A stretch of DNA of 63,687 nucleotides, counting the filler, from Octopus bimaculoides (taxonomy: Eukaryota), in assembly GCF_001194135.2 (NCBI RefSeq). It is 6 parts of 6 records of this genome, joined end to end, with 100 filler letters (N's around TTAATTAATTAA, not from the genome) between each part and the next. Parts side by side here need not be neighbours in the genome. Positions count along the whole stretch, not along the records: positions 25,221 to 40,209 come from NC_068999.1; positions 40,310 to 55,929 come from NC_068996.1; positions 56,030 to 59,521 come from NC_068986.1; positions 59,622 to 62,057 come from NC_068995.1; 2 more parts are not named here. One strand, written 5' to 3'. Under the pieces are notes generated by a model. The model saw only the letters and a list, made by a program, of their open reading frames with translations, had not been told where the DNA came from and ran no database searches. How positions within the stretch are numbered: position 1 is the stretch's first letter; each line of letters begins with the position of its first letter. The position numbers and the translations under genes were made by a program. Shown here piece by piece: positions 34,662 through 60,279 of this stretch.

Positions 34662-34697
34662 ATTGGACTTGTAATGTACGAGTCACCCGGTCAATTT
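34662..34697 (+). CDS. iGluR-like gene, candidate ATD micro-exon (36 nt)
   Basis: ttccactcacag|ATTGGACTT...CAATTT|gtatgt; phase 0-0; IGLVMYESPGQF resembles the IG.IF first beta strand of ANF-receptor-type ATDs. The donor coincides with a (GTAT)n start. Confidence 0.45.
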
Positions 34698-35028
34698 GTA
34701 TGTATGTATGTATGTATGTATGTATGTATGTATACATGTGTGTGTATGTATGTATGTATGTATGTATGTACGTATGTATGTAGATGCAAAATTGTCTGAA
34801 TGTGAGGAAGTATGGTGACCTAGCACATGACTAGGATTTCAGTCTTATTATATGACCCGGGTTGACTGAAGTAATGCGAATAGATTTGGTCGATGATAAC
34901 TGGGAAATGGAATCGAATCCACATCTCTTATTTTCATCGCAGTTTTTTTGTGTGCCCGATTATAGGCTATTTTCTATGGTCAATGCCCAGTGAAAGCCTA
35001 TATTTATACAATGTTCACTTAAGCAGTC

Positions 35029-35108
<80 letters not shown>

Positions 35109-36455
35109 TTAGGGACAAAATCCCAAATTACAAGTAAAAACGCAATTAAAATCAATTTATAAAAAATTAAAATTAAATTGAGCTTTATAGATAAAATATA
35201 TATAAAATATATAGTTTTAGGGAAAATAACCAAGTTTCATATATATATATATATATATACATACATACATACATACATACATATGTGTGTGTGTGTGTGT
35301 TCATATGTGGTTGTTTTTGTATAGGTGTGTGTGTTAAATATTGAAGTGCTTTGTTTGCGTGCGCTTCTAGAGCACCAGTTGTTATGTATCATGGAAATTA
35401 TTTTATATTTCATTATTGAGTAATGCTTTCTTTTCGCACCGCATTTTTCATTAAATATTAATACTGGTAATATTGCAAGTGATAAGCGATTTTTAATGCT
35501 ATAGATGTATGAAATATATACGCCGTAATTAAATATACCTGCGTGGAAAAATTTTCTTAACATTATCTATAAATTCTGTATTATAATATATAAGAATTAC
35601 TATAATATGAGTACACATATTAATGTATTTATGTATTTCTAAACATGTATTTTTAAATATAAATTTCAATAATAAACAATTAGTGATTTAAAAAAGACAC
35701 GATAGAGTTAATAAAATAAAGAAAATGTAATTTCGCTGCAGATTCATAGTCACTTTTGTCAGTTTATAATTGAAAGTAGGCTGAATGAAAAGATAAATAA
35801 AAGAATGGGATAAAACATGTGGAATTTTCCATTTACATATAAATATTTGATTGAGATTTGATTTAATCGTATTATATATTTCCGAATTTTTCTTTCCTAT
35901 TAACTTAGACAAATTTTCATGAAATTAAATCTATCTCTTTTTCCCCTACAAAATGTAAACAAAATTTGTTATAATAATGATTAAACAAATTCAATTTGCG
36001 ATTTCGTTTCATTTAAGTGCGTTTTTTTATTGTAATTTTCTCTTGTTGCTGTTTTTGTTGCTAGATGGGTGGAGATTAAACACTAGAAGGATTATATAAA
36101 TGATTGGCTGCTAAGAAAAATCGTTATAAATAAGAATAGTCTAGACTTAACAAATTTTCAATTTTCAATTAAGAGGATACTTATTTGATATAATAGTAGT
36201 TTCGTTTGATATAACTTTCCTTGTAATATTGTTCATAAAATTATTTGCTTTATCTTCAAATTTTTACATTATTACAAAATACTACATGGGCTAAGGTGTT
36301 TCACACAAATTAATTTTTGAAGTAATATGGTTCGCAAATGTTTGCATTTATTTTTTATTGAGTTTCTTACTAAGAGAATAATACGTAATTAAGAAAGAAT
36401 GTGCTCCATACACAGACTGTGATTATTCCTAAGATACGCTTCGATTTTTCCTTAG

Positions 36456-36556
36456 ATACACTTTGATTATTTCTCACATGCACTCTTAAATATGTTATTG
36501 ACCGTAGCTATGTATTCCTTCAATAATATTTTATCGGTATCACTTTCAAAACAATC
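36456..36556 (+). CDS. iGluR-like gene, ATD exon (101 nt)
   Basis: gatttttccttag| ... caatc|gtaagt; only one frame is open (IHFDYFSHALLNMLLTVAMYSFNNILSVSLSKQS); phase 0 to 2, matching the next exon. Confidence 0.55.
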
Positions 36557-36638
36557 GTAAGTTTAATTTAACCACAATAGGTTGCTTTTATTAAAAAATT
36601 AAACTTCGTGTCAGTTAACAAACTATAGTTTCATTTAG

Positions 36639-36768
36639 ATTGGACAACAATACATCTGCAATCGTTGCTAATACGTTAAGCAATCGTATGTCCAAACTTG
36701 ACCAAATGCTTACAATAGCCGGTTCTTTAGGTCAAACTATCGTATCCCCATCTACTTCAGATGTCAAG
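36639..36768 (+). CDS. iGluR-like gene, ATD exon
   Basis: tttcatttag|a TTG...; LDNNTSAIVANTLSNRMSKLDQMLTIAGSLGQTIVSPSTSDVK matches the ANF-receptor/ATD motif 'AI.GP..S......I...LG.P.ISPS'. Donor AAG|gtatca (phase 0); alternative donor at 36788 (phase 2). Confidence 0.65.
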
Positions 36769-36917
36769 GTATCAAACTTGGTCAAAATGTAGTACAACGG
36801 TTTTGCTATGGAATGGTGAAATTATTTTTCCGTTTTCTGATAAAGCAACGTTTTGGACTTACGACAGTTTTCCATAAGAACAATATATATAATTGCTTAT
36901 TAACCCCACTCAGACAG

Positions 36918-36985
36918 ATGAAATTAACTAAACACGGGATTGAAAATATGTGTGAATGTTTCATCAGTTTGTATTCGACATTATT
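36918..36985 (+). CDS. iGluR-like gene, possible ATD exon (68 nt)
   Basis: ctcagacag|ATG...ttatt|gtgagt; MKLTKHGIENMCECFISLYSTL; phase 0 to 2 bridges 36768 and 38668. Unnecessary if the previous exon ends at 36788. Confidence 0.4.
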
Positions 36986-37076
36986 GTGAGTTGAGCATAG
37001 AGAGAATAATTACTATCTGAATTAAGAAATTGCACTAAAAATACTAGAACACTACAAGTAGGCTCGCATTAATTCT

Positions 37077-37728
37077 TTTTTTACTCTGGAAACAAATCCC
37101 GAAATTTTAGGGGAAAATTTTAGGGGGAAATTTTAGGGCCAGTCGATAAGATCTACCCCAGTACGCAAATGTATCAACCCCGAAAGGATGAAAGACAAAG
37201 TCGACCACGGGCGAATTTGAACTCACAACATAAAGACAGACAAAACATCGCTAAGCAGTTTGACCGGCGTGCTAACGTTTCTTATTTCTTTATTGCCCAC
37301 AAGGGGCTAAACACACAGGGGACGAACAAGGACAGACAAACGGATTAAGTCGATTACATCGACCCCTGTGCGTAACTGATACTTAATTTATCGACCCCCA
37401 AAGGATGAAAAGTAAAGTCGATCCTCGGCGGAAATTGAATTCAGAACATAAAAACAAACGAAATACCGCTAAGCATTTTGCCCGCCGTGCTAACGTTTCT
37501 TATTTCTTTATTGCCTATAGGGGGCTAAACATAGAGGGGACAAAGAACGACAGACAAAAGGATTGCGATTACATCGACTCCAGTGCGTAACTGGTCCTTA
37601 ATTTATCGACCCAGAAAGGATGAAAAGTAAAGTAGACCTCGGCGGAATTTGAACTCAGAACGGAACGGCAGACGAAATACCCCTAAGCATTTCGTCCGGT
37701 ATGCTAACGTTTCTGCCAATCGCCGCCT
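37077..37728 (-). mobile_element. SINE family A trimer flanked by an 18-bp target-site duplication
   Basis: Three tandem units, each ending gctaacgtttc on the + strand. TAGGCTCGCATTAATTCT occurs at 37059-37076 and 37729-37746. Confidence 0.92.
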
Positions 37729-38359
37729 TAGGCTCGCATTAATTCTGTCATGCCTATGATATAGCTTTATTTTCGAAACGCATTTTTTTTGTGAAAAGTA
37801 TGTAAANNNNNNNNNNNNNNNNNNNNNNNNNNNNNNNNNNNNNNNNNNNNNNNNNNNNNNNNNNNNNNNNNNNNNNNNNNNNNNNNNNNNNNNNNNNNNN
37901 NNNNNNNNNNNNNNNNNNNNNNNNNNNNNNNNNNNNNNNNNNNNNNNNNNNNNNNNNNNNNNNNNNNNNNNNNNNNNNNNNNNNNNNNNNNNNNNNNNNN
38001 NNNNNNNNNNNNNNNNNNNNNNNNNNNNNNNNNNNNNNNNNNNNNNNNNNNNNNNNNNNNNNNNNNNNNNNNNNNNNNNNNNNNNNNNNNNNNNNNNNNN
38101 NNNNNNNNNNNNNNNNNNNNNNNNNNNNNNNNNNNNNNNNNNNNNNNNNNNNNNNNNNNNNNNNNNNNNNNNNNNNNNNNNNNNNNNNNNNNNNNNNNNN
38201 NNNNNNNNNNNNNNNNNNNNNNNNNNNNNNNNNNNNNNNNNNNNNNNNNNNNNNNNNNNNNNNNNNNNNNNNNNNNNNNNNNNNNNNNNNNNNNNNNNNN
38301 NNNNNNNNNNNNNNNNNNNNNNNNNNNNNNNNNNNNNNNNNNNNNNNNNNNNNNATATA

Positions 38360-38394
<35 letters not shown>

Positions 38395-38395
<1 letters not shown>

Positions 38396-38480
38396 TTCAT
38401 GTATGTATTGATGTGTCCGTGTTTGTTCGCCCACCATCGCTTGACAACCGATATTGGCTCGTTTACGTGACTGAAACAAG
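38395..38480 (+). mobile_element. SINE family B 3' fragment
   Basis: gtttgttcgcccaccatcgcttgacaaccgat...actgaaacaagt. Confidence 0.65.
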
Positions 38481-38667
38481 TTAAAGAAATGAAAGTAAAA
38501 GAAATATGTATAAACATATGTGTGTGTGAGTGTGTGATTGTGTGGATCAGTGTATCGTATATAAATTTGCTATGTTTATATAGTACACACAAGGAATCTG
38601 AAGGGATTTAATTGTTCTACATGAAAGTGACAGATGCTTGTGGATTTCTCATGTTACTTTCTGACAG

Positions 38668-38755
38668 TTACGATATTTTTCCTAAGCATGTTAGCTTTGC
38701 GTCGTTTCCAAGCCTTCTAACGTATTTAACCTTCCGCCATTTTGTGTTACACATG
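38668..38755 (+). CDS. iGluR-like gene, ATD exon
   Basis: ttactttctgacag|t TAC...ATG|gttagt; YDIFPKHVSFASFPSLLTYLTFRHFVLHM aligns with ATD 'SLYPD.....ALLSLIEYYQWDKFAY'; phase 2 to 0. Alternative donor at 38770. Confidence 0.55.
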
Positions 38756-39308
38756 GTTAGTTTTCGTTGTGTATTCAAGCTTCTCGAGAATAAATAGGTA
38801 CACGATTTCGTTCACGTCGGCGCTGTCGTACCGCCTACTGAGGCGTTGAAAATTTTTCGATGTCTTTGCTTTTCTTTATCAACCCTGAAGTAATTGATAT
38901 TAATTTGTGTTCAAACTGGTATGTTATAATTATGGGGTAAAGACCGAAGACGCTCTCTCTCATCGATTCGACAAATAAGGTTTTATCAAGAAACTGCTGG
39001 ACAGTGTCCAAAGTGCAAAGTTATGTAATATAGATGAGTATGAAATCTGCATCAATCTTGTGTCTTTGGAATACCACCCTTACCTTGGGGATGCTGTGTG
39101 CAGGGGCATTATTGCTTATATCCACTAGCTGCCTCTCCTACCTGTCGATACTCGACTAATGGAGAAAATGCAATAGCGTTCGTGATGGTGTCTGGGTGGA
39201 TTATACAAAACCTATTCTACTCTCTCGTCTTTCACACTTCTGTTAGACTGGTGCGAAAAGGTCTATGAACCTAGTAGTTATTAGGATACAAGATTTGTTT
39301 GCATTCAG

Positions 39309-39339
39309 ATATTAGCCATTCAGACAACTATATTCAACA
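39309..39339 (+). CDS. iGluR-like gene, candidate micro-exon (31 nt)
   Basis: tttgtttgcattcag|...ttcaaca|gtaagt, strong sites; ILAIQTTIFN, phase 0 to 1, fits both neighbours. Confidence 0.45.
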
Positions 39340-39399
39340 GTAAGTACACATATACGTACTCTTACATCTGATGAAGGGACACTTCAGAGACCAGAAGAC

Positions 39400-39840
39400 A
39401 TGGTAGTCATGCGCTGTTAGCATATATCTCATAAACAATAAGCCATGAAATGCCCTGTTTCAGAGCGTGAATCCACAGTTCACCGGCTATGTTTCTAGCG
39501 AGTATTTTCCCTCTTTGTTCAACAAAATCTTCTCCAGAATCAATCTTCTTTGTAAATTGTTCAAGATTAAAAAAATCCACAAAACTTGTTATGGGGAAAA
39601 ATAATTCCGTAACATAATAATTACAATGAAAACAATGCAAGCTAAATGAAAATTACTGTAACCGTGGATAACAACGATGAGATTTCGGTATAACCTATGC
39701 AGAAGAAACTATTGGGTGTAACAAACCAAAATAGGATAAAACTAACGGTAGCGCTATTACTTGCAATGGCTTCATTGCAAATTCATTTGAAGTTTCAACA
39801 TAGCAGCACCTGAATAACAGGAAGCCCCGCCGCAAGGAAA
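39400..39840 (-). mobile_element. possible highly degenerate Penelope-like GIY-YIG fragment
   Basis: FPCGG..C/RCCYV.TSNEF and ...GELWIHALKQG resemble the PLE Cys motif and 'E..WI..L' tail. Several frameshifts are needed. Confidence 0.3.
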
Positions 39841-39899
39841 TCTCTGCATAATTCTCGTTCTTTAACTAAAAGAAATAGCATTTTGAATAACAATATTAG

Positions 39900-39961
39900 G
39901 TATTCAGGTTGAAAATACAGGGAAATCGCATGCAAGACTGCGAAATACCATACAAGAGATG
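39900..39961 (+). CDS. iGluR-like gene, candidate ATD exon
   Basis: atattag|gt ATT CAG...ATG|gtatct; (S)IQVENTGKSHARLRNTIQEM(VSRTER) resembles AMPA-type 'INVGN...YRSLFQDL..KER'. The frame stays open to an alternative donor at 40030. Weak polypyrimidine tract. Confidence 0.45.
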
Positions 39962-40879
39962 GTATCTCGAACGGAAAGACTAAGCGATTATCAAATAGGA
40001 GACAGTATATGCATTGTTATCTTATTTGAAGTATTCATGACGTCACACAACCTGTCGCACGTCAACAATCTGGCTTTTATTTTTCTCAACAACTAAACCT
40101 TCGAAAGTATATCTCTCTATTCAAATTCCTGAAAGTAATGAATTTCCGTAAAGCCCCGAGGCATAAATACCTGTAAGCACGGATATATAAATATATATAT
40201 ATATATATANNNNNNNNNNNNNNNNNNNNNNNNNNNNNNNNNNNNNNNNNNNNTTAATTAATTAANNNNNNNNNNNNNNNNNNNNNNNNNNNNNNNNNNN
40301 NNNNNNNNNGGTGGTGGTGGTGGTGGTGGAAGAGGTGTTGGCGTTGGTGATGATGGTAAGTAAGGATGGGTTCGCTGATTGGAGATTTTTATTTTGTTTC
40401 CCCCCTCGCGTCCTCAGAATGTTGAATAAAGTAAGGTTGTGCTGACGAAAGAATAACGACAGATAGAGAAACAGACAAACAGAGACAAACAGACAGGCAG
40501 ACAGAGGAAGTGAGTGTGGGTGAGGATTGAATATTCTGTCGGGGTATGGGGTGTGTAGTAAGAGTGAGAGGTGTTCGAGGCAACAGGTTGAGTGTATTAG
40601 GGTGACGGTTCTTCAATGTCTTGGGATGAGGAACGAAGAAACGGCGGAGAGGAGAGGGTGACACAGATCGTCTGTATGTGTGTGTGCAAGCGTGTGTGAT
40701 GTGCGGAGATGTGTGTGAAGGATGACGGTAGCGTAGAATGTAAGAAAATAAATAGATGTAGAAAGAAAACAAGGTTCATTACTGTGTGAGGATGTTGAGG
40801 GAAGGTGATGCGATTGGAAGGGAGGGTGGCGTTCAGATAAATTACGACCAGGAGGAGTAAGGGTAATAAGGAAGGGTGT

Positions 40880-41250
40880 GAGGAAGAAGAAGAAGAAGAA
40901 GAAGAAGAAGAAGAAGAAGAAGAAGAAGAAGAAGAAGAAGAAGAAGAAGAAGAAGAAGAAGAAGAAGAAGAAGAAGAAGAAGAAGAAGNNNNNNNNNNNN
41001 NNNNNNNNNNNNNNNNNNNNNNNNNNNNNNNNNNGTGTGAGGAAGAAGAAGAAGAAGAAGAAGAAGAAGAAGAAGAAGAAGAAGAAGAAGAAGAAAGGGA
41101 AGAAGAAGAAGAAGAAGAAGAAAGGGAAGAAGAAGAAGAAGAAGAAGAGGAAGAGGAAGAAGTAGAAGAAGAAAAAGAAGAAGAAGAAGAAGAAGAAGAA
41201 GAAGAAAAAGAAGAAGAAGAAGAAGAAATAGAAGAAGTAGAAGAAGAAGA
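40880..41250. repeat. (GAA)n microsatellite spanning a gap
   Basis: Direct reading. Confidence 0.97.
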
Positions 41251-41508
41251 ACTAGTGGTTATAATGTTGCTGTTGTTGTTGTCGGTGGTGGTGTTGGTGG
41301 TGGTGGTTGTCGTGGTCGTGATAGAGGTTGTAATTAAGATAATAGTGGTTAAGAACTTCACTATTTTGCAGTCACGTGGTTTAGGGTTCGGCCTGCTGAA
41401 GACAACCTTTAGGAAATCTCTTTATTTTTCTACAATGGTACAGAACCAACCAATATTTCTCCCAAAGTGATTTTCTAGATGGAAACTGCGAGAAAACTTA
41501 TCGTTCAT

Positions 41509-41562
<54 letters not shown>

Positions 41563-41786
41563 TATATATATATGGTGGTGGTTGTCTACTCCTCATGCAG
41601 AGTCTAACTCTCTCTTATACTTACACCTTAGATCCACCATAGCGTTTGATGTGGCTTTTTAAATCAGACATTATATTGAAGAAACACCCACATAGATTGC
41701 ATATCAGATTTGGTCCACCAAGAGCTGTGGTATATTAATCGAAGTGTACAGTATTATACATCCATTACGCTCGATCTTACCAACAG

Positions 41787-41817
41787 GTTTCCAACTAGTG
41801 TTTCAACGGGATGTTAG
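41787..41817 (+). CDS. iGluR-like gene, candidate ATD exon
   Basis: cttaccaacag|gt TTC CAA CTA GTG...GTT ag|gtaaca gives (G)FQLVFQRDV, the ATD 'GFQ(L/I)V' motif. The frame is open upstream to 41696 (..CGILIEVYSII.., like 'GMMTEYYHYI'), so the exon may start there. Confidence 0.45.
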
Positions 41818-43199
41818 GTAACATTTCTATTATGTAACTCTACACTCTTCAGAGATAGCGGATCTTTTCTGTTTGACTAAATTTGTGGAAATTTTAAACT
41901 TTAGTGAAAATTTTAAAATTTGGTGTATTATTATCATTTTCCACGCTGAATCTCGGGAGATAAGTCACTTTTTCCAGAAAATATTTCTAAAAAGTTACAG
42001 AGATTTAAAGTTTGGCAATTTTTACTCAGTGAGAAGACAGGATTTGTTATTTTGTGAGTGACTGCACGCGTTGTCAACTGTATACAAATGAAATATTGGC
42101 GGTATTCTGCTTTACTCACGCCATATAACACTTCGTAACTTTTTAATTATTTGGAATTTTCAGAAAATGTTTGCGAATTTGTGTTCTACACACGGGAATT
42201 CATGTGCTTATACCAAAACTGAAAAAAAATTGGTGTGTGATTTAAGGCCTATTTAGTTATTATTTTTACCACATTTTACGACCACTATTTAATAAGAGAA
42301 AAAGATGACCGCATGAGTAAGCAGCTAGGTAATATCTTGGCTTGTTGCTATACGTCTGTGGTTTTCGATTAGCTAAAATTAACCAAAATTTTAAAACTTT
42401 AAAAGCTATTAACTCCTTATTTATTGATTTATGACGAAAATGAATTTCATGTCAATGATTTACTTACAAAACTACACCAAACATAAAATATGTAATCAGT
42501 TGGAACAAAGAAATTGGAAAATGGCACCCAAAGATTCGTTTTCTCATCCTTTTCACAGCAACCACAAACCGTATGTATCTATTCACCTCCAAGAACAGAG
42601 CAGTCGCCATATTTTATTCCATAAGGGCTACCTCGGATCTTTTCTGTTTGGCTGCCACTTTTCAATTTCTTCAATTTTTATTCCAATTGATTTTATATTT
42701 CAAACAGAAAAGAGCCAATGAAACGAAACGAGCAGAAGATTAAGTTAAGAGTTATATCCCTTACTATCAAAACATCGTCTCTCGAGGTTGTTTTGTTGTA
42801 AGTCGGCGAGAGTTTCCTAGCAAAGAGTTTATGGGAAGTATGTGAGTCTTGAAGGTTGGTTTTCATGTGGAAATGTAATGTGCGCCGTGAAACGGTTTAA
42901 CTAGCCATTGCGAGGGTAAATACACATCTACGTTCGTTAATGTGTTTCTTTCTTTTATGCTATGGTTAAGTTCTTGGGGCATTTATGTATGCATGCGGTG
43001 TGTATAGAGGTACAATAAATGGTGGGGTGTATTGAGGGGGAGTCTATTGGTTGGCTGATCGTCGTGCTAGGGTGTGTGCTTTTGTTCGTGCGTGTGTTAG
43101 TGTATGTTCTGGTCAAACTCTTTCCCGGATTCTCAGGTTTTGGTCGAGGGCCGAAGTTGGAGGACTGGTGATTATAGTCATGATGGGACACGCAGGTAT

Positions 43200-43860
43200 G
43201 TTAGGATGTACTTCTTTCATGTGAGCAAGGATTAAAAATCTCACTCCTGCTGTTCAAGTAAATGTGTGGGTGCGGGGTGATCTTTAAATTCGCTCTTTTC
43301 TCAGCCAGGCATAATCTTCACTTCCTGTTGTTATTGATATACGCCTTACATTTCTCTAAAATCCTCCATTTTATGCTGTACGCAGTGGCATTTTCTTTCA
43401 ACGTTCAGACGCGCTTGGCCAGGGTTGTAGCGTTACGTCACTCCAGAATGTCGAAGGAGGACTTGTGGTTGTTACAGCGGATTTTGAAGGGGCCTTCAGT
43501 TGTTCTCACATACTTTCGCACGTTTGGTTGCTCATTTGGTCCTATTATTGTTACTTCTGCCTCATATACAACGGTTTCTGTTTTACAGTGACCGTTCAGT
43601 GGACATGCTGTGTTACCCCCATATGAGTATATTGTCTCTGTCTCAGATGTGTGCCTACCTACTAAAACCCAACATCTTAACCACAATGACACTCACCTTC
43701 ACGTTCATTTTTAACTATTTCTACAATTTTGTTGTGATTTTTGTTTTCTTACCGAGGATTTACGTCACATATCTGTTGTGAAATAAATGGTTTTTGTAAA
43801 TTTATTAAGAAAAATAGTGGATAATTGTGAGTAAATATTAGTATCATAAAACTTTCAAGA
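43200..43860 (-). mobile_element. Penelope-like element, GIY-YIG endonuclease region
   Basis: CPLNGHCKTETVVYEAEV...KYVRTTEGPFKIRCNNHKSSF...LAKRV*TLKE...YSIKWRILEK...LCLAEK...LNSRSEI. Confidence 0.88.
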
Positions 43861-44157
43861 TGCAGTATAAATAGGTTAATCCGACTGTTTAGTTATTGGT
43901 ACTAAAACAAAGTGACATGATATGGAAAGAGACAAACAAGGAGAAACAAGAGGTGAGAAAGATGTAGGATGAAAAATAAGTATGAAGACCGAGATAGCGG
44001 AAAATATAAAATACCAATTGCGTTCAATACTTCCATACAACACGTACTAAAAACTAACAACAAAACACACCAACATTACCATTCACTTCATACCAATATT
44101 ACCATAGACCAACATGATACTACCATAGAACATTCGTCAATATTGTCATGTAATATA

Positions 44158-44365
44158 AGGCGGCGTGCTGCAAAATCGTTAGCATGCCAGGCAAAATACT
44201 TAGCCGTATTTCGTCTGTCTTTACGTTCTGAGTTAAAATTCCACCGAGGTCGACTTTGCCTTTCATCCTTTCGGAGTCGATAAAATAAGTACCAGTTGAA
44301 TACTGGGATCGATGAAACCGACTTAACCCAAAATTTCTGGCCTTGTGTTAGAATTTGAAACCAAT
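44158..44365 (+). mobile_element. SINE family A
   Basis: aaggcggcgtgctgcaaaatcgttagc...gagttaaaattccaccgaggtcgactttgcctttcatcc. Confidence 0.9.
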
Positions 44366-44585
44366 ATTACGATACATTGTGCCATAGAACACATGTCATC
44401 ATTACCAATGCAACATATCTGAAGAGAATTGTATTTTGTAATTTTGACACAAGGCCAACAAGTTTCAGCGGGTGGGGTTAGTGGATGACATTAACCCTAG
44501 TGCTCAAACAAACTAACACCGGTTGTCAAGCACTTGTAGGGGACAAACAACACAAAGATATGCATACACAATTCAAAGGTCACAC

Positions 44586-44599
<14 letters not shown>

Positions 44600-44630
<31 letters not shown>

Positions 44631-50700: not shown

Positions 50701-51147
50701 TTTGGAAATTCAGAGCACTGTTGACCATATGATTATGATTGCAGAAGTAGAGAAATAATGGAATTCCAAGCAAATATTTTGAAGTATAAACTGTCTCTTT
50801 ATACAGCCTCGTTCAAGCGTGCTGGGGTGAAATTTTTGTTACAAAATAAAAACAACCAAATTTCTCACTGTGACTAATACATATGAATATCATTTCGGAT
50901 ATTTATTTATAAATATATTAAATACGGACATACATCTGTGTACGCATGTACATACATACAGACATGCAGACGTACATACATACATTCATGCATATACATA
51001 CATATATATATATTACACGTGGATATTAAATTGTATAGTTATTAATATATAGAGACGCAGATACATATATGCATAAATCCATATACACCTATGTATATGT
51101 GTGTGTATGTGTATGTATACATACATACATATATATATGTGTGTGTA

Positions 51148-51179
<32 letters not shown>

Positions 51180-51463
51180 TGTGTACATGTGCACGTGTAT
51201 NNNNNNNNNNNNNNNNNNNNNNNNNNNNNNNNNNNNNNNNNNNNNNNNNNNNNNNNNNNNNNNNNNNNNNNNNNNNNNNNNNNNNNNNNNNNNNNNNNNN
51301 NNNNNNNNNNNNNNNNNNNNNNNNNNNNNNNNNNNNNNNNNNNNNNNNNNNNNNNNNNNNNNNNNNNNNNNNNNNNNNNNNNNNNNNNNNNNNNNNNNNN
51401 NNNNNNNNNNNNNNNNNNNNNNNNNNNNNNNNNNNNNNNNNNNNNNNNNNNNNNNNNNATATA

Positions 51464-51494
<31 letters not shown>

Positions 51495-52534
51495 GTCAGT
51501 AAATGGTGGGGTTACTGCATATATATATATATATGCAGTTGTAGATATATATTTCTACATATTAAAACATACACATATACATATCTGTCTGTATATGCGT
51601 GTGTATACACTTACATATACACACACGCTCACATACACACCCACAAATACACACCGACCACATTATACGCATACCACATGCATACATACATACATACATA
51701 CATACATACATACAGTGGTATCTATTTGGTTAGGTACGAAGGCTGTATAGATGAAAGGAGCTGTAGGATATTGATACGTTAACAGACTTTCCCCATAGGT
51801 ATTAGCAGCAACCGAACTGAGCTGGTTTAAACCGGAAATTGAAACCGCTATGCAGTTTTGGTTTTGCCAGATTACTTTTAGCTGTACGGCGCACACCCCT
51901 GAATTATACAATATGGTGTAATGTATATATCTTCTGTCACTTTCTTCTTCGTATTTTATGGTGTGGCAACACCCTTTTGTAGCTAAACATAAACCTTTAT
52001 AAGGCGTTTCTATATCGAAGCGGCAGAGAGAATTTGATTCCTTGGTTATGAGTAGAATTTGATAATGTTCCTACAGAAATTCGAACTCATGATTCTTTTT
52101 CTTTTTTTCTTTTTTTCTTTTGTTTTTGTTAAATTAAAAATACCTTTAGCAAAATTAAGTAGTCGATGACCGAGTGTACTAGAAACGAGACAACCCTTAA
52201 AGATATTTAACTGAAAAATAGCCCATTCTACTTAACTATAGAAGAGTGAAGTGAGCTTGCATAATTAATTTAATGAGCATAGTAAATTTAATTATTCAAG
52301 AATATACAGTATTGAGTTGGAGTAAATTGTTTAACTAAAGTAAAGAATTGTAAGGGAGACAATTTAAAATAATTCTTTTTTTCGTAATGGATTGACGCAC
52401 CAGTTCCAGTTAATTAAAAGTGGAACGTGGCAATGCGGCAAATAGAGTGACAACTATGTACATGTTTCGCTCTTATTAGATTTCTTCAGTGAAGTAATGT
52501 CAATCATACATCTGTAAGGTTAATACGAGGAAAA

Positions 52535-53220
52535 GTGAAGCATAGTCATCCAAGTGTTTACCGAATCAACAGAGAGCAACGATAAACCTCTATAGTGAAG
52601 CACAGTCTGTCTTGTGTCTTCCGGATTAATAGAGAGAAAAGATAAACCACGTAAGTGAAACGGTCAGTTACGTGTCCGTCAAAGCAGTATAGAGAAAAGA
52701 AATACCTCTTTGGTGAACACGGTCATTTACATGACTGTCATGCCAAGAGAGAGAGAGAGGTGACGCAGAAGGGGAGAGAGGGTGAGATAGAGGGTGAGAG
52801 AGGGTGAGACAGAGGGAGAGAGAGGGTGAGACAGAGGGAGAGAGAGGTGGAGAGAGATAGGGAGGAGAGAGAGGAGTTGAGAGAGATGTTAAAACTATTT
52901 CATTGAAATATTCCGTTATGTGTCTGCTTTTGCAATAAAAGCATAGATAGACACACCTCGAGGAATACAGTCATCCACGTATCGCCCAGCTCAATACAGA
53001 GAAAAGAGAGAAACTTCTTTAGAGAATTATTCTCATGTCTACCGTGTCAATAGAGAGAGAAGTTAGACAATTTCAGTGGAATATGGCCACTCAAATGTTT
53101 GTCAAGTCTGCACAGAGAAAAGACAGATCTCCTTAGTGGAACAGAGGCGTTTATGTAACAATGGAGGAATAACACAGAGACCTTTTCAATTAAGTATAGC
53201 CATTCGCATGTCTAAAACTA
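52535..53220. repeat. ancient ~58-60 bp minisatellite interrupted by a (GA)-rich tract
   Basis: Units begin gtgaa at 52535, 52595, 52655 and 52713, each with ..gtca.. and agagaaaag..acct; more diverged units follow 52890. Confidence 0.65.
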
Positions 53221-53429
53221 AATGGAAATAAATATATGCATATACATACACTGATATAACAATTAAAACAACGTAGTGCTCAAGGTGACAAAGATTAAGA
53301 ACAACTCGGCGTTCCAGCCATGAACATCAAGTTGTCAGAAATGCTAAAAATATAAATATAGCTTACTTGTTTATAATTGTGACAGTAAGGATGCCTATGT
53401 ATTAATTTAAGAGAGCGTAAACTACTGTG

Positions 53430-54850
53430 GTGTAATATCTCTGATCGAATGCTATTATTCAGTCAAAGTTCCTATTTTTTATTTGTCGGCATTTTAATCT
53501 GTGATTTTGTCAGAACAAAAGAAAAGCATTTAATTTACGGTATTAATGCAAAAGAAAAGTTGGAAAATTAAATATTTTGATGATTTATTTGTTTCACATA
53601 ATTCCAAAGTTTCACTTAGTGGAATCAGTTTAATATTAGGATTTGGAATTTGTTGCCTTTGGATATTGAGTCTGTTTTTTAAGGTTAGTATCGTTTGTCC
53701 AATGTAATCTTCATCGCATCCGTTGCATCTTATACCGTAAATTAAATGCTTTGACTAACAGCTGATGTCATTTTTTTACATAAAAAAATATAGTGTGATT
53801 TAAACTTAAGTTGTTGCTTTCATGAGCTTGATAGGGTTCTGCAGCTTGGACTTTTTGACTATTGGTATTGCATTTTTAATGAGCAATATGATGGTGGTAA
53901 GAAATTTTTAGGGTTTGGTTGTTTATTGTTTTTTTTATTATTTTGTATATTTCGAGATCTTTTTCATTCTTGCATCTTGTTTCAATAATAGATTGTTTTA
54001 ATGGATAATATTGTATTTTTCTGTATTTCTGGTAGTCTACTGGGCGTATTTGAATTGCCTTTTGTCCTTGTAATTCTTGAATGCTTGTTGCTTTGGTACG
54101 ATCTGTTTCGTTTTAAATTAACATTGTTGGGTATTGTCATTCAAGTAGCATTTGTTTTAAGCCTTAGAGTCTTTTATTTCATGTGTCAAAATTCGAAGAG
54201 ATTGAGCATATTCTTCGTGCTAGATTAACGGTTATATTTGTTTTTGTAAGTTTTGGGAGAGACAAGCAGTAACTAGTAAGTATAGTTTATAGTTTGTAGT
54301 GGATGTTGGTTTTAATAGAAGTGTTCTTGTTTTTGATTATTAAAATATGCAGGAAGGGTAGTTGATGGTAACTGTGCTCTATTGTGAGCGGTAAATTGCT
54401 GTTCGTATCATTAATACGGGTTTCAAGTGATCAAGTTAGTCAAGACCATGGGCCCACAGAATTAGGTTATCATCCAAATAACATTTCCAATTTCCTAACA
54501 TATATTCATAGAAGATGATGCGATACTCTAATCTAGATTATTCATATATTTGGACTTCCAAGTATACCATGATTGAATTGGCGTAATTTGAGGTATCTTT
54601 CATTCCCATCACTGTCCCAGGTAGTTTGTAAACGCTATTGAAGTAGAAAAATTATTTTATCTGATAAATTTAATTCCTTCAATAATTACTTTTTTCTCTT
54701 TCTGGTCTGGGATTTCATTGTGGGATTTTTTAAAGCCATAATTCTATCAGTTATAGTCCATAGTCATGAGGAATATTAGTAATACCAGGAAGATTCAACT
54801 GAATGGACATTTAAACTTGTGTACACCAAAATTCAAAGATGTGAAATAAT
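53430..54850 (-). mobile_element. Penelope-like element (RT C-half + GIY-YIG), pseudogenised
   Basis: Minus: ..TNIPHDYGL.., GTVMGMK..NYANSIMVYLE, YLDD, LPFLHILI; then SKHLIYGIRCNGCDEDYIGQTILTLKNRLNIQRQQI...IPLSE.LELC. Confidence 0.9.
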
Positions 54851-55146
54851 TTGGTTAATTACAATACAGAAGAAATTGTGAATTATCTTCATTTTTTAAT
54901 TATTTTCCTTACTCTCGTTACTTATATATATATATATNNNNNNNNNNNNNNNNNNNNNNNNNNNNNNNNNNNNNNNNNNNNNNNNNNNNNNNNNNNNNNN
55001 NNNNNNNNNNNNNNNNNNNNNNNNNNNNNNNNNNNNNNNNNNNNATATATATAGGAGGGAGAATGTACGAAAAAAAACAACAGACGAGGACAGGTGGTGT
55101 AAACAACAGAAGGATGTATTAGTATGACGCTCGGGAATACGGAAAG

Positions 55147-55183
55147 TCTTTAACGTTTCGAGCTACGTTCTTCAACAGAAAGA
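55147..55183 (-). ncRNA. minimal hammerhead-like motif, A6U core variant
   Basis: Minus: TCTTT-CTGTTGA-A-GA(ACGTAGC)TC-GAA-ACGT-T-AAAGA; 5-bp stem I, palindromic ACGU stem III, GUU site. Confidence 0.5.
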
Positions 55184-55644
55184 ATATATACATATATATG
55201 TATGTTTGTATGTATATATAACGATTATCCCAAAATCTTTTCCTAGGGGAGAAAATGACAGTTGAAACAGAATAAGAGACTCTCTGTCAAAACCATAAAG
55301 CCCTACATATGTTAGACAAATAGAAAACTGACACCTTGTGACGTTCCTGCTTTTGTAAAGGTCTTTGCTAGCGTAAAATGGCAAATGGATGTCAAATTGT
55401 GAAACAGAAACGCATCGAGAAATTTGGTTTTAGCCAACTGATATTGATGGGGTTCATTATCGCTCTAGGTTCGTCATGGCTGGTCATTCCTGTAATGACC
55501 ATCACGATATTTTCTCAAAGTATTGTACCTGCAACTACATTATGCATTATGCAATGTATTGGAATGTGATTCCAAAAACATGTCGCTGTTATTTCTAATG
55601 TACCAAGCGATGTCTATATAGCTGAGCAAGGTAGTCGAATAACT

Positions 55645-55715
55645 GGTTGGCTGGTTGGTTGGCTGGTTGGTTGGTTGGTTGGCTGGTTGGCTGGTTGGCT
55701 GGTTGGTTGGTTAGC
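55645..55715. repeat. (GGTT/GGCT)n tetranucleotide repeat
   Basis: Direct reading. Confidence 0.9.
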
Positions 55716-55768
55716 CCGGAGGTTAGACTGCTAGATAGCAGCAGTCGTATGTATTAACAATGAAAATG

Positions 55769-55825
<57 letters not shown>

Positions 55826-56509
55826 TATATTTAAAAATTCCACAGAAGTTTGCAAGGTGGATAGTAGTAAATCCTTAATGAAAACAAGTGGTAATGTTTA
55901 TCGAGAATGTGCTGATCCCAGGGGTGCCTNNNNNNNNNNNNNNNNNNNNNNNNNNNNNNNNNNNNNNNNNNNNTTAATTAATTAANNNNNNNNNNNNNNN
56001 NNNNNNNNNNNNNNNNNNNNNNNNNNNNNTATATATATATATAAATCACATGCATGTGTGCACAGATATGAATATATATGTGTGTATGTGCATGAGTTAT
56101 ATATATATATATATAGGAATCCACTTCGACACCGAAGTGTTGCGTTCTTAAAAAGATTATTGTGATGCGAAATTCCGTAACGCAAAACTCTTTCCCACCA
56201 CTTATTTGCGTAATATATATCATAGTGCATCGTGACAATTCCCCTTCCTCACAAAATGTCAAGTAAAGAAATAATGATAAGAGAAGTAATACAAACGTAT
56301 TCGTCCTTGAAAATATCAATTTTAAACAGGCAACACTGTATGCGGTCATATAAACATTTGGAGAAAAATGCATTCCGGAATAAATGAGAATGCAGTGATG
56401 TAGGATAAGTATTTACCAAAGAAGTTGGTTACTGGGTTGTCAAGAACATTGAGGCAACACACAAAAGTAATCGATAGGGAAGTTAAACCTACAGTAAGAG
56501 ACTTCTCTT

Positions 56510-56744
56510 TTACTCTTTTACTTGTTTCAGTCATTTGACTGCGGCCATGCTGGAGCACCGCCTTTAGTCGAGAAAATCGACCCCAGGACTTATTCTTTGT
56601 AAGCCTAGTACTTATTCTATCGGTCTCTTTTGCCGAACCGCTAAGTTACAGGGACTTAAACACACCAGTTACGCACTGGGGTCGATGTAATCGACTTAAT
56701 CCCTTTGTCTGTCCTTGTTTGTTCCCTCTATGTTTAGCCCCTTG
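56510..56744. mobile_element. SINE family B 3' half (-, 56510-56668) fused to a family A tail (+, 56668-56744)
   Basis: cttgtttcagtcatttgactgcggccatgctggagcaccgcc...ctaagttacagggac, then accagttacgcactggggtcgatgtaatcgac. Confidence 0.85.
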
Positions 56745-57088
56745 NNNNNNNNNNNNNNNNNNNNNNNNNNNNNNNNNNNNNNNNNNNNNNNNNNNNNNNN
56801 NNNNNNNNNNNNNNNNNNNNNNNNNNNNNNNNNNNNNNNNNNNNNNNNNNNNNNNNNNNNNNNNNNNNNNNNNNNNNNNNNNNNNNNNNNNNNNNNNNNN
56901 NNNNNNNNNNNNNNNNNNNNNNNNNNNNNNNNNNNNNNNNNNNNNNNNNNNTCTCATTCCTAACGATGTTACTATTATTATATTATTATTATTATTACTA
57001 TTATTAATCAGGTCGCTGCCGTGAATCGAACTCGGAACCTAATAGTAACATCGTTAGGAATGAGAAACCAGGTTCGAAATTTCCCCAA

Positions 57089-57134
57089 GACACCTGACGA
57101 AGGCTGGAGGGTATATCAGCCGAAACGTTGTGTT
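57089..57134 (+). ncRNA. minimal type I hammerhead ribozyme inside a short retroposon
   Basis: GACAC-CTGACGA-A-GGCTG(GAGGGTATAT)CAGCC-GAA-ACGT-T-GTGTT: 5-bp stem I, 5-bp stem II, palindromic ACGU stem III, GUU site. This is the architecture described for dimeric Penelope-associated hammerheads. Confidence 0.75.
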
Positions 57135-57795
57135 GACAACAAACAAGATGAGGACAAATATCCGTCAAATGTAAATGATGTAAATAATGTGTATGATTAA
57201 AGTTAGTTGCAACATTTCGGTCAGTTGAACTGCTGCATGCATAAACAAATTAGAAAGAGAAGAAGGTATAGTTAGGTGTTGGGACGAATGCCGAAAACAA
57301 GGAAAAGCAAGGTCAGTTGAATTGATGCACGGACAAAAGAAGGCTGGGGTGAAGTGGGCGAGTGGATGGAAAAGAATGTTGCGTAGTTGTAACAATAGGA
57401 ACCAATGGTTTCATTATCATCCATTGTCCACCAACCTCGTAGCCAATAATTCTCTTGTGTCTTGTCATCTGAAAAGCAGGAAGGTTCTTGAGTCAGCAGC
57501 ACATGCGGCAACTGCAACAGTGAGACAGTGGCGGTGTTGAGGTATTAGAAGGCAACACGGAACTTCTTAAGTGTTCATCGACATACTAGAAATATCAGTA
57601 ATCTAACTGAAATCACACCTTACCGTCCTAAACAATGAAAGATATTTTAGATTGTTCAGTTTTAGATATCCTAAATTTGGGAAAGAGACGGGATAGAGCA
57701 AATGGAAAAATTTTGAGTATAATTTTGCTGGATCATGACTGACTTGCCTCTACATAACGATAATAATAAAAAGAGCAAGAAATAGGCACCAACAC

Positions 57796-57855
57796 CAGCA
57801 GCAGCAGCAACAGCAGCAGTAGCAACAGCAGCAGCAGCAGCAGCAGCAACAGTAA
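57796..57855. repeat. (CAG/CAA)n repeat
   Basis: Direct reading; tail-adjacent to a family C SINE. Confidence 0.9.
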
Positions 57856-57876
57856 CAAGGTAGATACAACTTCAAT

Positions 57877-58132
57877 GTTGTTGGCACTCCGTCGCTTACG
57901 ACGTCGAGGGTTCCAGGTGATCCGATCAACAGAACAGCCTGCTCGTGAAAATAACGTGCAAGTGGGTGAGTACTCCACAGACACATGTACCCTTAACGCA
58001 GTTCTCGGGGATATTCAGCGTGACACAGTGTGACAAGGCTGAGCCTTCGAATTACAGGCACAACAGAAACAGGAAGTGAGAGTGAGAGAAAGTTTTGGTG
58101 AAAGAGTACAGCAGGGTTCGCCACTATCCCCT
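57877..58132 (-). mobile_element. SINE family C (head in gap)
   Basis: Near-identical to 47292-47545: gttggcactccgtcgcttacgac...gagtacagcagggtt. Confidence 0.92.
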
Positions 58133-58546
58133 NNNNNNNNNNNNNNNNNNNNNNNNNNNNNNNNNNNNNNNNNNNNNNNNNNNNNNNNNNNNNNNNNNNN
58201 NNNNNNNNNNNNNNNNNNNNNNNNNNNNNNNNNNNNNNNNNNNNNNNNNNNNNNNNNNNNNNNNNNNNNNNNNNNNNNNNNNNNNNNNNNNNNNNNNNNN
58301 NNNNNNNNNNNNNNNNNNNNNNNNNNNNNNNNNNNNNNNNNNNNNNNNNNNNNNNNNNNNNNNNNNNNNNNNNNNNNNNNNNNNNNAATTCCATAATCAA
58401 GGCAACACAAAACCTACTCCAAGACCAGTTTTCAGAATATGTATGTTTGTTGTCAGTTATCTTCCAATATAGATATTTCATCATTCAATATTTTTGTGAA
58501 ATATTTTGAGATAATTATGAAGCAATGCTTTCTTTTTATTTTCTAG

Positions 58547-58585
58547 AATCCCGCGAAAAAGGTTATCAAGGTTTCTACGTTCCAA
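58547..58585 (+). CDS. iGluR-like gene, exon at the ATD-S1 junction (39 nt)
   Basis: tctttttattttctag|AAT...CAA|gtaagt; NPAKKVIKVSTFQ, phase 0-0; equivalent to iGluR 'N.TL.VTTIL|E.P(F/Y).M'. Confidence 0.75.
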
Positions 58586-59089
58586 GTAAGTGTTTTTCAT
58601 TGTCTCTTGTCCGGGTACTAAAATAATTTATCACTTCTGATGGATTGCCTACCTAATTAAGAATATTGTCACTATTCATACGTCTATTAATATTCAAATT
58701 AATATAAAATGTTTGTTATTTACATCAGAAACCAATATAAAAGTTTTTCATTCTATAAGATTTATACGAAAGAAGCAGAAAACTTAGTAACTTAATAAAT
58801 CTTAAAGAAGAATACTTCTGGCTGGAGGTGGTTGATTATTATTGTTGTTGTTTAGTTCCAGGTCAACCCTGACCAAGCGGACCTTGGATCGAAGGCATTC
58901 TAGCCTTGATCATCCAGATTTTTCTCTAATATCTAATATATAGGATTACCTTGTCTAATGCTTCCTCTTATCAAGACGGTATGATATGATCCGAAGATTT
59001 CATAGTTTTTTTCTAATAGATCGGGCGAACGAAGTGTGAATCCTTTGTTAGCAACCGACTGATAGGTTAAGTACCAAGCTTGTTCTATT

Positions 59090-59160
59090 CGTTCAATTAA
59101 AAACCTTTTAAGGCGGTGCCCCAGCATGACCGCACTGCAATGACTAAAACATGTAAGTAT
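59090..59160 (+). mobile_element. SINE family B 3' end
   Basis: aaggcggtgccccagcatgaccgcactgcaatgactaaaacatgtaag. Confidence 0.7.
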
Positions 59161-59428
59161 GACGCTTATGAGTTTAAGCAATAATGGCGCCTTCATGCTG
59201 CTAATGTTTCATCGTTTTATTTTTCAGCTACCAAAAGGGTTTAAATCAAAGCACATTGTGCGTTTGTTAACGAAACGTTTACCAAGACTACAAATCGGAG
59301 GTTATCTGCTGCTTCCTGTACATTATCACCCATGTAACTGACAAATTAGGTGGCGTTTACATAGTTCTGTGTCTTTTTACCCGACAATTTTATATTCTTA
59401 CTTAACGGGTTGTTTTTGTTTTCTCCAG

Positions 59429-59742
59429 ATACCTCCCTTTTACATGGAAGAAACACATGGAAGCGGAAGAGAACAGCATGGCTATATAGTTGACATGTTA
59501 GCTGAGATGGCTCCATTAATGNNNNNNNNNNNNNNNNNNNNNNNNNNNNNNNNNNNNNNNNNNNNTTAATTAATTAANNNNNNNNNNNNNNNNNNNNNNN
59601 NNNNNNNNNNNNNNNNNNNNNAGAATATAATATAAACGTCTCGTCCCAACAAAAGCCAAAACATAATATAAAGATGGCAAAGTCTAAAACTATAAAAGAT
59701 GGATATAGTGATGCTGCACGGCTGCTATTTCTCATGGAATTG
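59429..59742 (+). CDS. iGluR/IR-like gene, S1 ligand-binding-domain exon (spans a 100-nt gap)
   Basis: tgtttttgttttctccag|IPPFYMEETHGSGREQHGYIVDMLAEMAPLM [gap] EYNINVSSQQKPKHNIKMAKSKTIKDGYSDAARLLFLMEL|gtgaga. Matches the S1 pattern 'PF.M....(E/H)G(Y/F)..D(L/M)L.E.A..L.F.Y.I'. Confidence 0.8.
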
Positions 59743-59758
59743 GTGAGATCTTATTTAC

Positions 59759-59930
59759 AGGCGCAGGAGTGGCTGTGTGGCAAGTAGCTTGCTTACCAAC
59801 CACATGGTTCCGGGTTCAGTCCCATTGCGTGGCATCTTGGGAAAGTGTCTTCTACGCTAGCCTCGGGGGGACCAAAGCCTTGTGAGTGGATTTGGTAGAC
59901 GGAAACTGAAAGAAGCCCGTCGTATATATG

Positions 59931-59961
<31 letters not shown>

Positions 59962-60175
59962 TTGTGTGTCTATGTTTGTCCCCCAAGCAGTGCTTGACAA
60001 CCGATGCTGGTGTGCTTATGTCCCCGTCACTTAGCGGTTCGGCAAAAGGGAGCGATAGAATAAGTACTAGGCTTACAAAGAATAAGTCCCGGGGTCGATT
60101 TGCTCGACTAAAGGCGGTGCTCCAGCATGGCCACAGTTAAATGACTGAAACAAGTAAAAGAGTAAAGAGTAAAAG
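59759..60175 (+). mobile_element. SINE family B, full length, 16 nt downstream of the S1 exon donor
   Basis: Same structure as 46015-46412. Confidence 0.93.
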
Positions 60176-60203
60176 AGTACAGTTACACATGTCATTTCTA
60201 CAG

Positions 60204-60279
60204 ACAAGATATTCTGTATTACCATATATATCTACTGATATTTTTATAGTTGGCCATAAGATTTATGAAAGAAAGAATG
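60204..60279 (+). CDS. iGluR-like gene, possible next S1 exon
   Basis: gtcatttctacag|TRYSVLPYISTDIFIVGHKIYERKN g|gtaatc; phase 0 start fits. It would place an Arg 12 residues after 'D' as in 'DLAVAPL.IT..R', followed by a 'P(F/Y)....I.I' like stretch. Confidence 0.35.

Follow-up and report, generated by a model that had tools for sequence, protein, structure and literature searches.

S1 exons of GluFIV in Octopus bimaculoides, a Phi-class glutamate receptor gene whose transcript very probably lacks an ATD

The locus examined here raises the question whether its S1-coding segments belong to a long and highly divergent ionotropic glutamate receptor (iGluR) gene that includes an ATD, or to a shorter gene that does without one. 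It lies in a 63,687-nucleotide stretch of the Octopus bimaculoides genome (six parts joined end to end; referred to as the window), in which the initial annotation had read a chain of five ATD-like exons (segments A to E) spliced to the start of S1 (exons F and G) and followed by a last segment (H). The nine peptides on which that reading was built were all recovered from the + strand at the positions it implies, each within an AG..GT segment, with the exception of the segment starting at 59429, which meets the N gap before any donor.

Coding exon F (58547..58585, + strand) comprises 13 codons in phase 0-0 and encodes the tail of a short N-terminal stretch together with the first S1 strand. 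All 13 residues match both the O. bimaculoides RefSeq protein XP_014783750.1 and residues 36-48 of O. sinensis XP_029637805. An intron of 843 nt (58586..59428, + strand; GT..AG, phase 0) separates it from coding exon G (59429..59521, + strand), of which 31 codons, belonging to S1 of the ligand-binding domain, are visible before the 100-base gap marker (59522..59621, unstranded; 44 N, a 12-base spacer and 44 N) that cuts the exon off and likely hides its remainder. The splice sites are strong (acceptor/donor 11.4/5.7 for 58547-58585 and acceptor 11.4 at 59429, by a crude in-house score). Exon G is 85% identical to O. sinensis XP_029637805 and 87-91% identical to three octopus proteins, and its frame found exactly two matches among proteins of 71-2000 aa, both shorter than 500 aa (85% and 73% identical). 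Among five segments scanned with Pfam, exon G was the one that matched Lig_chan-Glu_bd, i.e., the profile expected of an iGluR, although the match was weak (E=0.06; 13.9 bits against a cut-off of 30 bits). A PDB sequence search with exon G returned nothing useful and an Atlas search no informative family, and its lone HMMER match among representatives (P0001) was dropped as a tandem-repeat sequence whose score summed weak repeats. The residues that follow exon G in homologues were searched for across the window and found nowhere, and the M1-M4 channel-domain exons, sought from the same homologues, were likewise absent from it.

Four runs (X13, X15, X17 and X18) were aligned to 58390-59521; X13 and X18 were taken as RNA by guess, a GT..AG joint being hard to obtain from DNA. 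The joint 58585->59429 (GT..AG) appeared in three of the four runs (one read in X17, two contigs in X18 and one contig in X13) and was absent from the joints listed for X15, so that raw-read support consists of one junction read in X17 and zero in X15. Exon F is overlain by the spliced contigs and one read, and one spliced contig extends 290 letters beyond 59521. The intron that had been proposed within the start of S1 is thus borne out by spliced RNA, and the S1-start exons are real, given their splice sites, this joint and their similarity to XP_029637805.

Among the loose ends listed, two X18 contigs and one X13 contig, coming from two studies, carry an identical 22 letters before 58545, which, read in frame, encode residues 28-35 of the signal region in O. 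sinensis. All three contigs for which an end at exon F is listed therefore bear the end of a signal peptide. When these letters were sought in the window at three mismatches, 0 matches were obtained, and the loose end agrees with the ends of segments A to E at only 7-9 of 24 letters each, such that the supposed co-splicing of ATD-like segments with S1 found no counterpart in any of the five. We conclude that in the transcript the signal peptide is very probably followed at once by the ligand-binding domain, with no ATD between them. Two variants are expressed, since 59460 G>A reaches a depth of 133.1 of 212.1 in X18, and the X13 contig differs from the window at 2+2 letters. Because of these two variants, and because O. 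sinensis and Argonauta have paired paralogues, a neighbouring paralogue or allele may be a partial source of the junction contigs and of the downstream RefSeq model.

The gene had been regarded as hidden, which holds for the ORF track but not for RefSeq, where it already has a model (XP_014783750.1). This protein begins with two peptides present letter for letter in the window, i.e., at 57288-57311 (8/8) and at 58547-58585 (13/13). The first coding exon of the model (57288..57311, + strand; 8/8 identical to the N-terminus of XP_014783750.1) is probably mis-predicted, since it is missing from the other octopus proteins and the spliced contigs bear a signal-peptide end instead. Moreover, XP_014783750.1 lacks exon G and the remaining S1, so that the published sequence is incomplete. 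In a supplementary table of Zeng et al. 2021, XP_014783750.1 is listed as GluFIV_Obi, a Phi-class iGluR of subclass IV (PMC8437780). The locus and its class are therefore already known, and it is highly probable that the S1 exons in the window belong to GluFIV and that this gene has no ATD. The main text of that paper has 0 occurrences of "ATD" or "N-terminal domain", and PMC6307864 likewise has 0 occurrences of "terminal domain" in the text searched; these main-text passages hold no mention of a loss of the ATD in GluF, which may be printed in figures or in subscription reviews. A literature search for functional data on the GluFIV protein found none.

Complete proteins without an ATD, of 476-496 aa, occur in O. 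sinensis (XP_029637805.1 and XP_029637908.1), O. vulgaris (CAI9724888.1) and Argonauta hians (GAB1608522.1), all annotated as "glutamate receptor 2" or "2-like". Exon G is 73-91% identical to these Octopus and Argonauta hians proteins, in which a short N-terminal leader runs directly into exon F and is followed by three long hydrophobic segments. Pfam matched them above cut-off to Lig_chan-Glu_bd (E=1e-28), Lig_chan (E=4e-28) and SBP_bac_3 (E=4e-14), and gave no match to ANF_receptor, one of the profiles that the initial annotation had named for a check. In O. sinensis as in Argonauta, a single contig carries two paralogues; compared with the O. sinensis pair, exons F and G of the window mix residues of both. 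Relatives without an ATD are also found in bivalves, a gastropod and hemichordates, and the suggestion of a lineage-specific receptor gives way to one that is not octopus-specific. In an unrooted tree (midpoint-drawn with no outgroup, and built without named Phi, AMPA, delta or IR references) the protein groups with the ATD-less bivalve and gastropod proteins (support 95/91), and the 22 relatives found included no IR sequences.

This architecture bears directly on the upstream segments, all on the + strand. Segment A (34662..34697) is absent from the transcript found and adjoins a TGTA microsatellite; it sits at the edge of a - strand remnant that we take, from motifs recognised by eye, to be LINE reverse-transcriptase-like. 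Segment B (36639..36768; 43 open codons) is probably non-coding: no homologue was found (0/13 candidates scored, and none in Pfam or PDB), and its Atlas recognition of 1611 falls under 2300. A SINE-like repeat lies at 37134-37680. Segment C (38668..38755; 29 open codons) is also probably non-coding, shows no ATD match and gave nothing useful in a PDB sequence search. Segment D (39908..39961) likewise shows no ATD match and has weak splice sites, and segment E (41787..41817) is not the exon joined to F, agreeing with the RNA junction at 8/24 letters, the same as unrelated segments. Segment H (60249..60279) is missing from the homologous proteins; like A to E, it falls outside the RNA-aligned stretch. 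Two additional candidate exons were dropped as unlike the homologues, i.e., 39309-39339 and 43137-43195, the latter adjoining a probable Penelope-type remnant.

A single long gene, in which A to E would form a highly divergent ATD spliced to S1 in the main form or in a rare long isoform, would accord with the ATD-like order of the motifs, as judged by eye, and with the phase at the start of segment A (0), which agrees with that at the end of the signal-peptide exon. Exons could also be concealed in the gaps at 37807-38354, 40210-40309 and 55930-56029, upstream of the stretch to which RNA was aligned. The phase consistency that had been claimed is nevertheless not confirmed: A ends in phase 0 and B starts in 2, B ends in 0 and C starts in 2, D ends in 0 and E starts in 1, and E ends in 2 and F starts in 0. 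With the boundaries set in this way, all four of these proposed junctions break phase, which different boundaries, or further exons of the kind that the initial annotation allowed to be missing, could mend. Against ATDs the segments scored at background level, in a weak test where the true exon G, set as a control against a spider kainate-receptor ligand-binding domain, also scored at background; of the two ATDs used, one placed segment E within the top 4% of background and the other placed segment A within the top 6%. With a two-sequence ATD profile run over 3745 stop-free segments, none of A to E ranked in the top 40. Between 34 and 58.5 kb, stop-free AG..GT readings number 287 on the + strand and 275 on the - strand, which means that it is common to find segments no worse than the weakest of A to E. 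Finally, no long form was found among cephalopod proteins of up to 2000 aa (5/5 cluster members being at most 496 aa), and ATD exons surviving as relics would have to be very old, since ATD-less relatives reach as far as hemichordates; the relic reading was dropped on this ground. With the signal-peptide end preceding F in RNA and no ATD in the homologues, the ATD segments are not supported as part of the gene. A long gene is thus very unlikely, and A to E are most likely non-coding, with a chance likeness to ATD motifs.

The properties of the ATD-less GluFIV protein were read from the homologues, whose corresponding exons lie outside the window (numbering of rat GluA2). Pro478, Thr480, Arg485, Gly653-Ser654-Thr655 and Glu705 are all kept, with Arg485 and Glu705 present in XP_014783750.1 and three other Octopus rows. 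A Gly at the first GST position has been described as accompanying glutamate selectivity, in accounts that also note that GST-based ligand predictions fail in some receptors. Judged from these residues, glutamate is probably the ligand. Among 20 aligned rows, Trp occupies position 586 (the Q/R site) in 12/12 rows of the cephalopod, bivalve and gastropod group, 11 of which combine it with Arg590, i.e., Arg in place of Asp590 at the +4 position. The gate motif reads LYIGSMAAHL in six octopod rows, with Ile at Thr617. In Argonauta, Arg485 is replaced by His in one copy (P0008), which also has Ser480, Ala655 and Asp705, and a second copy (P0003) carries Ser653.

Put together, these features would describe a subunit of approximately 495 residues in which the signal peptide leads directly onto the ligand-binding domain. 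Its intact pocket residues predict closure of the clamshell by glutamate, and a tetrameric glutamate-gated cation channel would likely include it. With no ATD, the ligand-binding and membrane domains would have to carry iGluR assembly, and the trans-synaptic anchoring that ATDs mediate would be lost. In the literature covered, polyamines are described as blocking Epsilon, AMPA and kainate receptors only where an acidic residue stands at +4; Trp at the Q/R site together with Arg for Asp590 predicts that this block is lost and calcium flux low. The altered gate (YIGSMAAH, with Ile at Thr617) may make gating weak, and a partner subunit may be required.

We slightly favour a conducting channel subunit over a non-conducting binder. 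The latter would be a modulatory protein akin to the ATD-less vertebrate kainate-binding proteins, acting in heteromers only or as a glutamate buffer; to our knowledge, kainate-binding proteins alone give no currents. The bulky Trp at Q/R, the Arg at +4 and the missing ATD would fit such a role, as would the Ile at Thr617, common to two bird proteins of the kainate-binding type (P0021 and P0022). Yet the pore and gate residues are conserved in cephalopods, and Trp586/Arg590 extends to bivalves and the gastropod, suggesting selection on the function of the pore; delta receptors of invertebrates, formerly considered silent, are moreover reported in passages of PMC10861852 to conduct. A non-conducting role is possible but on balance somewhat doubtful.

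It seems unlikely that the protein serves as a peripheral, IR-like chemosensory receptor, in which an ATD-less subunit would do the tuning in the suckers or the olfactory organ and its tandem paralogues would diverge in their ligands. Such a role would be in line with the tandem paralogues of Octopus and Argonauta, with the pocket changes in P0008 and P0003, and with the sensory roles that Ramos-Vicente et al. leave possible for divergent members (PMC6307864, in part), but the octopus copies retain the full glutamate-binding set, and two copies per genome were seen, without expansion. In the parts of the literature covered, moreover, the published placement is Phi rather than IR (PMC8437780), IRs are reported to form the sister group of delta receptors (10.64898/2026.09.30.755715), amphioxus Phi genes are enriched in the nerve cord (PMC6307864) and expression of the scallop GluF genes is ubiquitous. 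A wider proposal is conceivable though rather improbable: mollusc and hemichordate GluF/Phi would form an ancient ATD-less iGluR branch, which may correspond, among invertebrates, to the vertebrate kainate-binding proteins, and in which the cephalopod pore (Trp at Q/R, Arg at +4, Ile at the gate), unlike any recorded, would be calcium-impermeable, and unblocked or of altered charge selectivity, and tandem copies would drift to new ligands and a peripheral sensory role.

Since gene and class are published, the claim of a discovery falls, and the remaining interest lies in the absent ATD, the Trp at Q/R, the Arg at +4, the gate and the paralogues. The O. bimaculoides model in the literature probably has a wrong N-terminus and misses most of S1, and the RNA junction indicates the correct architecture. 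A natural subunit that lacks an ATD and combines a glutamate pocket predicted to be intact with an unusual pore would also offer a cheap test of ATD-free iGluR assembly and gating.

Compared with GluA2, the best PDB match, S1-M1-M2-M3-S2 align from residues 26 to 415 (E ~1e-79) with conserved binding residues and no long insertion in the S2 region, whereas GluA2 has an ATD, Gln at Q/R and Asp590, and the octopus protein has no ATD, Trp, Arg and a changed gate motif. Canonical AMPA and kainate subunits place an ATD of approximately 380 residues, missing from the octopus RNA, between signal peptide and S1, and carry Gln/Arg at 586 and an acidic 590 where the octopus protein has Trp and Arg; the view of a divergent iGluR outside the canonical AMPA, kainate and NMDA subunits is upheld in this respect. 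Vertebrate proteins of the kainate-binding type (P0021 GLRK and P0022) are also approximately 490 aa long, with a signal peptide and then S1, share the absence of Gln586 and the Ile at 617, and are ~32-35% identical to the octopus protein. The unrooted tree places them with kainate-like proteins on a 100/99 branch apart from the mollusc clade, an arrangement that would allow a shared origin if the root lay on the kainate branch. Tuning IRs are iGluR-derived and have a reduced or altered N-terminus like that of the octopus protein, whose published class is Phi (PMC8437780, supplementary table). IR25a/IR8a co-receptors have a full ATD, whereas the octopus protein lacks this domain and has retained a canonical pocket for glutamate; passages of 10.64898/2026.09.30.755715 state that co-receptors retain the full ATD and a "beam", and IR75b half an ATD. 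The Phi class, described as uncharacterised in part of PMC10861852, comprises subunits without Q586 in which the SYTANLAAF gate motif is often poorly conserved (PMC6307864, passages). The octopus protein shares the loss of Gln586, having Trp there, its LYIGSMAAHL gate fits the poor conservation, which is a class tendency and not a strict criterion, and it keeps the Arg485 and acidic 705 for amino-acid binding.

The peptides quoted in the initial annotation, which proposed a phase-consistent chain of amino-terminal domain (ATD) exons leading into S1, were all found on the + strand, in segments A (34662–34697), B (36639–36768), C (38668–38755), D (39908–39961), E (41787–41817), F (58547–58585), G (59429–59521), and H (60249–60279). 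Only F and G proved to be real exons, and these had the best splice sites (acceptors 11.4, donor 5.7 on a crude in-house score, vs. acceptors of 6.4–9.6 and donors of –0.7 to 2.9 for A–E and H). With the boundaries as placed, C–D and F–G were directly compatible in phase, while A–B, B–C, D–E, and E–F were not. Segments that match or surpass the weakest of this set were plentiful, with 287 readings on the + strand vs. 275 on the – strand (i.e., no strand excess), and among five segments scanned against Pfam, G alone matched a family (Lig_chan-Glu_bd), weakly. Moreover, the continuity of the interval 34662–60279 is not guaranteed, since it holds three of the five 100-base gap markers (25121–25220, 40210–40309, 55930–56029, 59522–59621, and 62058–62157), which each consist of 44 N, a 12-base spacer with stops in all frames, and 44 N, and are probably scaffolding joins of unknown size.

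The window itself is AT-rich animal DNA (with 4,600 N), rich in microsatellites and transposon remnants. Mariner/Tc1 transposase remnants lie at 5035–5661 (+), 17144–17386 (–), and 21526–21837 (–) (Transposase_1, E=1e-12; HTH_48, E=7e-18; DDE_3, E=0.002). A degenerate remnant with stops and frameshifts at 33450–34700 (–), which by eye we take to be LINE reverse-transcriptase-like, overlaps segment A on the opposite strand, and the frames scanned next to A gave no Pfam match. Another frameshifted remnant at 43260–43700 (–), also without Pfam match, looks similar to the GIY-YIG endonuclease at the C-terminus of Penelope-like elements, and a dispersed SINE-like family (11011–11387, 31359–31703, 37134–37680, and 44170–44329) forms local tandem copies spaced about 215–230 nt.

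A search with a frame of 40 residues that ends in exon G yielded two proteins from two candidates, one of 494 aa from O. sinensis (XP_029637805.1) and one of 476 aa from Argonauta hians. The five-member cluster of the former includes the O. bimaculoides model XP_014783750.1, which starts with the peptide encoded at 57288–57311 (8/8) followed by exon F (13/13); since this first peptide is absent from all other cluster members, the model is tied to the window locus. Zeng et al. 2021 (PMC8437780) list XP_014783750.1 in a supplementary table as GluFIV_Obi (Phi class, subclass IV), and describe Phi genes from each of the seven molluscs that they examined. The gene was thus already known and classified, so that the annotated receptor stands as to exons F and G, but not as to its novelty. 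The first coding exon of XP_014783750.1 (57288–57311) appears to be a mis-prediction; exon G is missing from this model as well, probably owing to the gap at 59522 that cuts it, and the later model XP_052824974.1 starts only downstream of S1.

In complete homologues, a leader of ~35 residues is followed by exon F, G, the remaining S1, M1–M3, S2, M4, and a short tail, with no alignment to A–E or H. Reads and contigs from four sequencing runs (X13, X15, X17, and X18, of which X13 and X18 are presumed, as a guess, to be RNA) were compared with 58390–59521 only, and the 843-nt F–G intron (GT..AG) was spliced in three of the four. Among the loose ends listed, two X18 contigs and one X13 contig, from two studies, carried the same 22 letters upstream of F, which translate in frame into the eight residues that close the O. 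sinensis leader. These letters were not found in the window, and agreed at 7–9 of 24 positions with the ends of A–E and with that of the first exon in the RefSeq model. Since the leader end directly precedes F and mismatches the ends of A–E, the transcript found skips any ATD, contrary to the proposed architecture. The signal-peptide exon and the exons past G were not found in the window sequence, and lie in gaps or beyond the window.

Two sequence variants are expressed at the locus, so some junction contigs may derive from a paralogue or allele; one X18 junction contig showed zero differences from the window over 59429–59490. In spliced contigs, 59460 G>A (depth 133.1 of 212.1 in X18; all of X13) changes Gly to Glu, as in O. 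sinensis, and is a second allele or tandem paralogue. A-to-I editing was ruled out by the direction of this change.

Segment B had no homologue among 5.8 billion proteins (0/13 candidates), no match among PDB sequences, and a low Atlas recognition value. Segments A–E, picked beforehand for their ATD-like look, were compared with the ATDs of two ATD-bearing matches (of 22). The share of random window peptides with a score at least as high was 0.06/0.66 (A), 0.76/0.45 (B), 0.45/0.23 (C), 0.36/0.50 (D), and 0.12/0.04 (E), and none of the five segments ranked within the top 40 of 3745 segments with a profile of both ATDs. This test has little power, since exon G, which is genuine, likewise scored no better than background (share 0.51) against the S1 of a spider kainate receptor. 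With reads compared over 58390–59521, a rare long isoform with A–E as ATD exons is best regarded as highly improbable. Segment H resembles the next motif of the spider receptor (share 0.02), which explains its initial choice, but true homologues carry a different peptide at that place.

A search with the O. sinensis protein, confined to 271–865 aa (any longer ATD-bearing Phi proteins would fall outside this range), gave 22 proteins, among them short ones from two unionid bivalves, a gastropod, and two hemichordates, as well as bird kainate-binding-type proteins. Because several short matches are partial kainate receptors, short length alone is no proof. The S1 motif lay 38–97 residues from the start in 9 of the 10 proteins examined (out of 27), vs. 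444 in a full-length kainate receptor, and six of those nine had a signal-like N-terminus by hydrophobicity threshold. In a 24-row tree (leaving out proteins P0001, P0007, and P0027), the cephalopod proteins formed a clade (100/100), joined by the bivalve pair (97/95) and a gastropod group (95/91); as it includes neither an outgroup nor a named sequence of the Phi, AMPA, delta, or IR type, the tree fits the published Phi class without testing it. O. sinensis and Argonauta each carry a pair of copies on a single contig, and the Argonauta pair shows differences in the ligand pocket, which hints at ligand drift. The second Argonauta paralogue (P0008) has His for Arg485 (rat GluA2 numbering), plus Ser480, Ala655, Asp705, and Cys590, and may have lost the usual amino-acid binding.

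Functional residues were mapped on GluA2 by alignment, with the relevant exons, located outside the window, read from the O. bimaculoides model and other Octopus proteins. These keep Pro478, Thr480, Arg485, Gly653-Ser654-Thr655, and Glu705, from which glutamate is the predicted ligand, with known exceptions to the rules of PMC6307864, PMC8437780, and PMC13648236. In the pore, the Q/R site is occupied by Trp and position +4 by Arg; since an acidic +4 residue is described as necessary for polyamines to block Epsilon, AMPA, and kainate receptors, a non-rectifying, calcium-poor channel is predicted. Judged from residues at every functional step, the GluFIV product would be a glutamate-binding, ATD-less channel subunit, likely aided by a partner.

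The best remaining lead is functional and comparative, i.e., the absence of an ATD in a class described as uncharacterised (PMC10861852); the main-text passages searched, including those of PMC8437780 and PMC6307864, make no mention of a missing ATD in the Phi class. According to PMC6307864, Phi subunits lack Gln586, and their gate motif tends to be poorly conserved. The octopus gate reads YIGSMAAH, and its Ile at Thr617, by which the subunit may conduct poorly alone, is shared with the two bird kainate-binding-type proteins.
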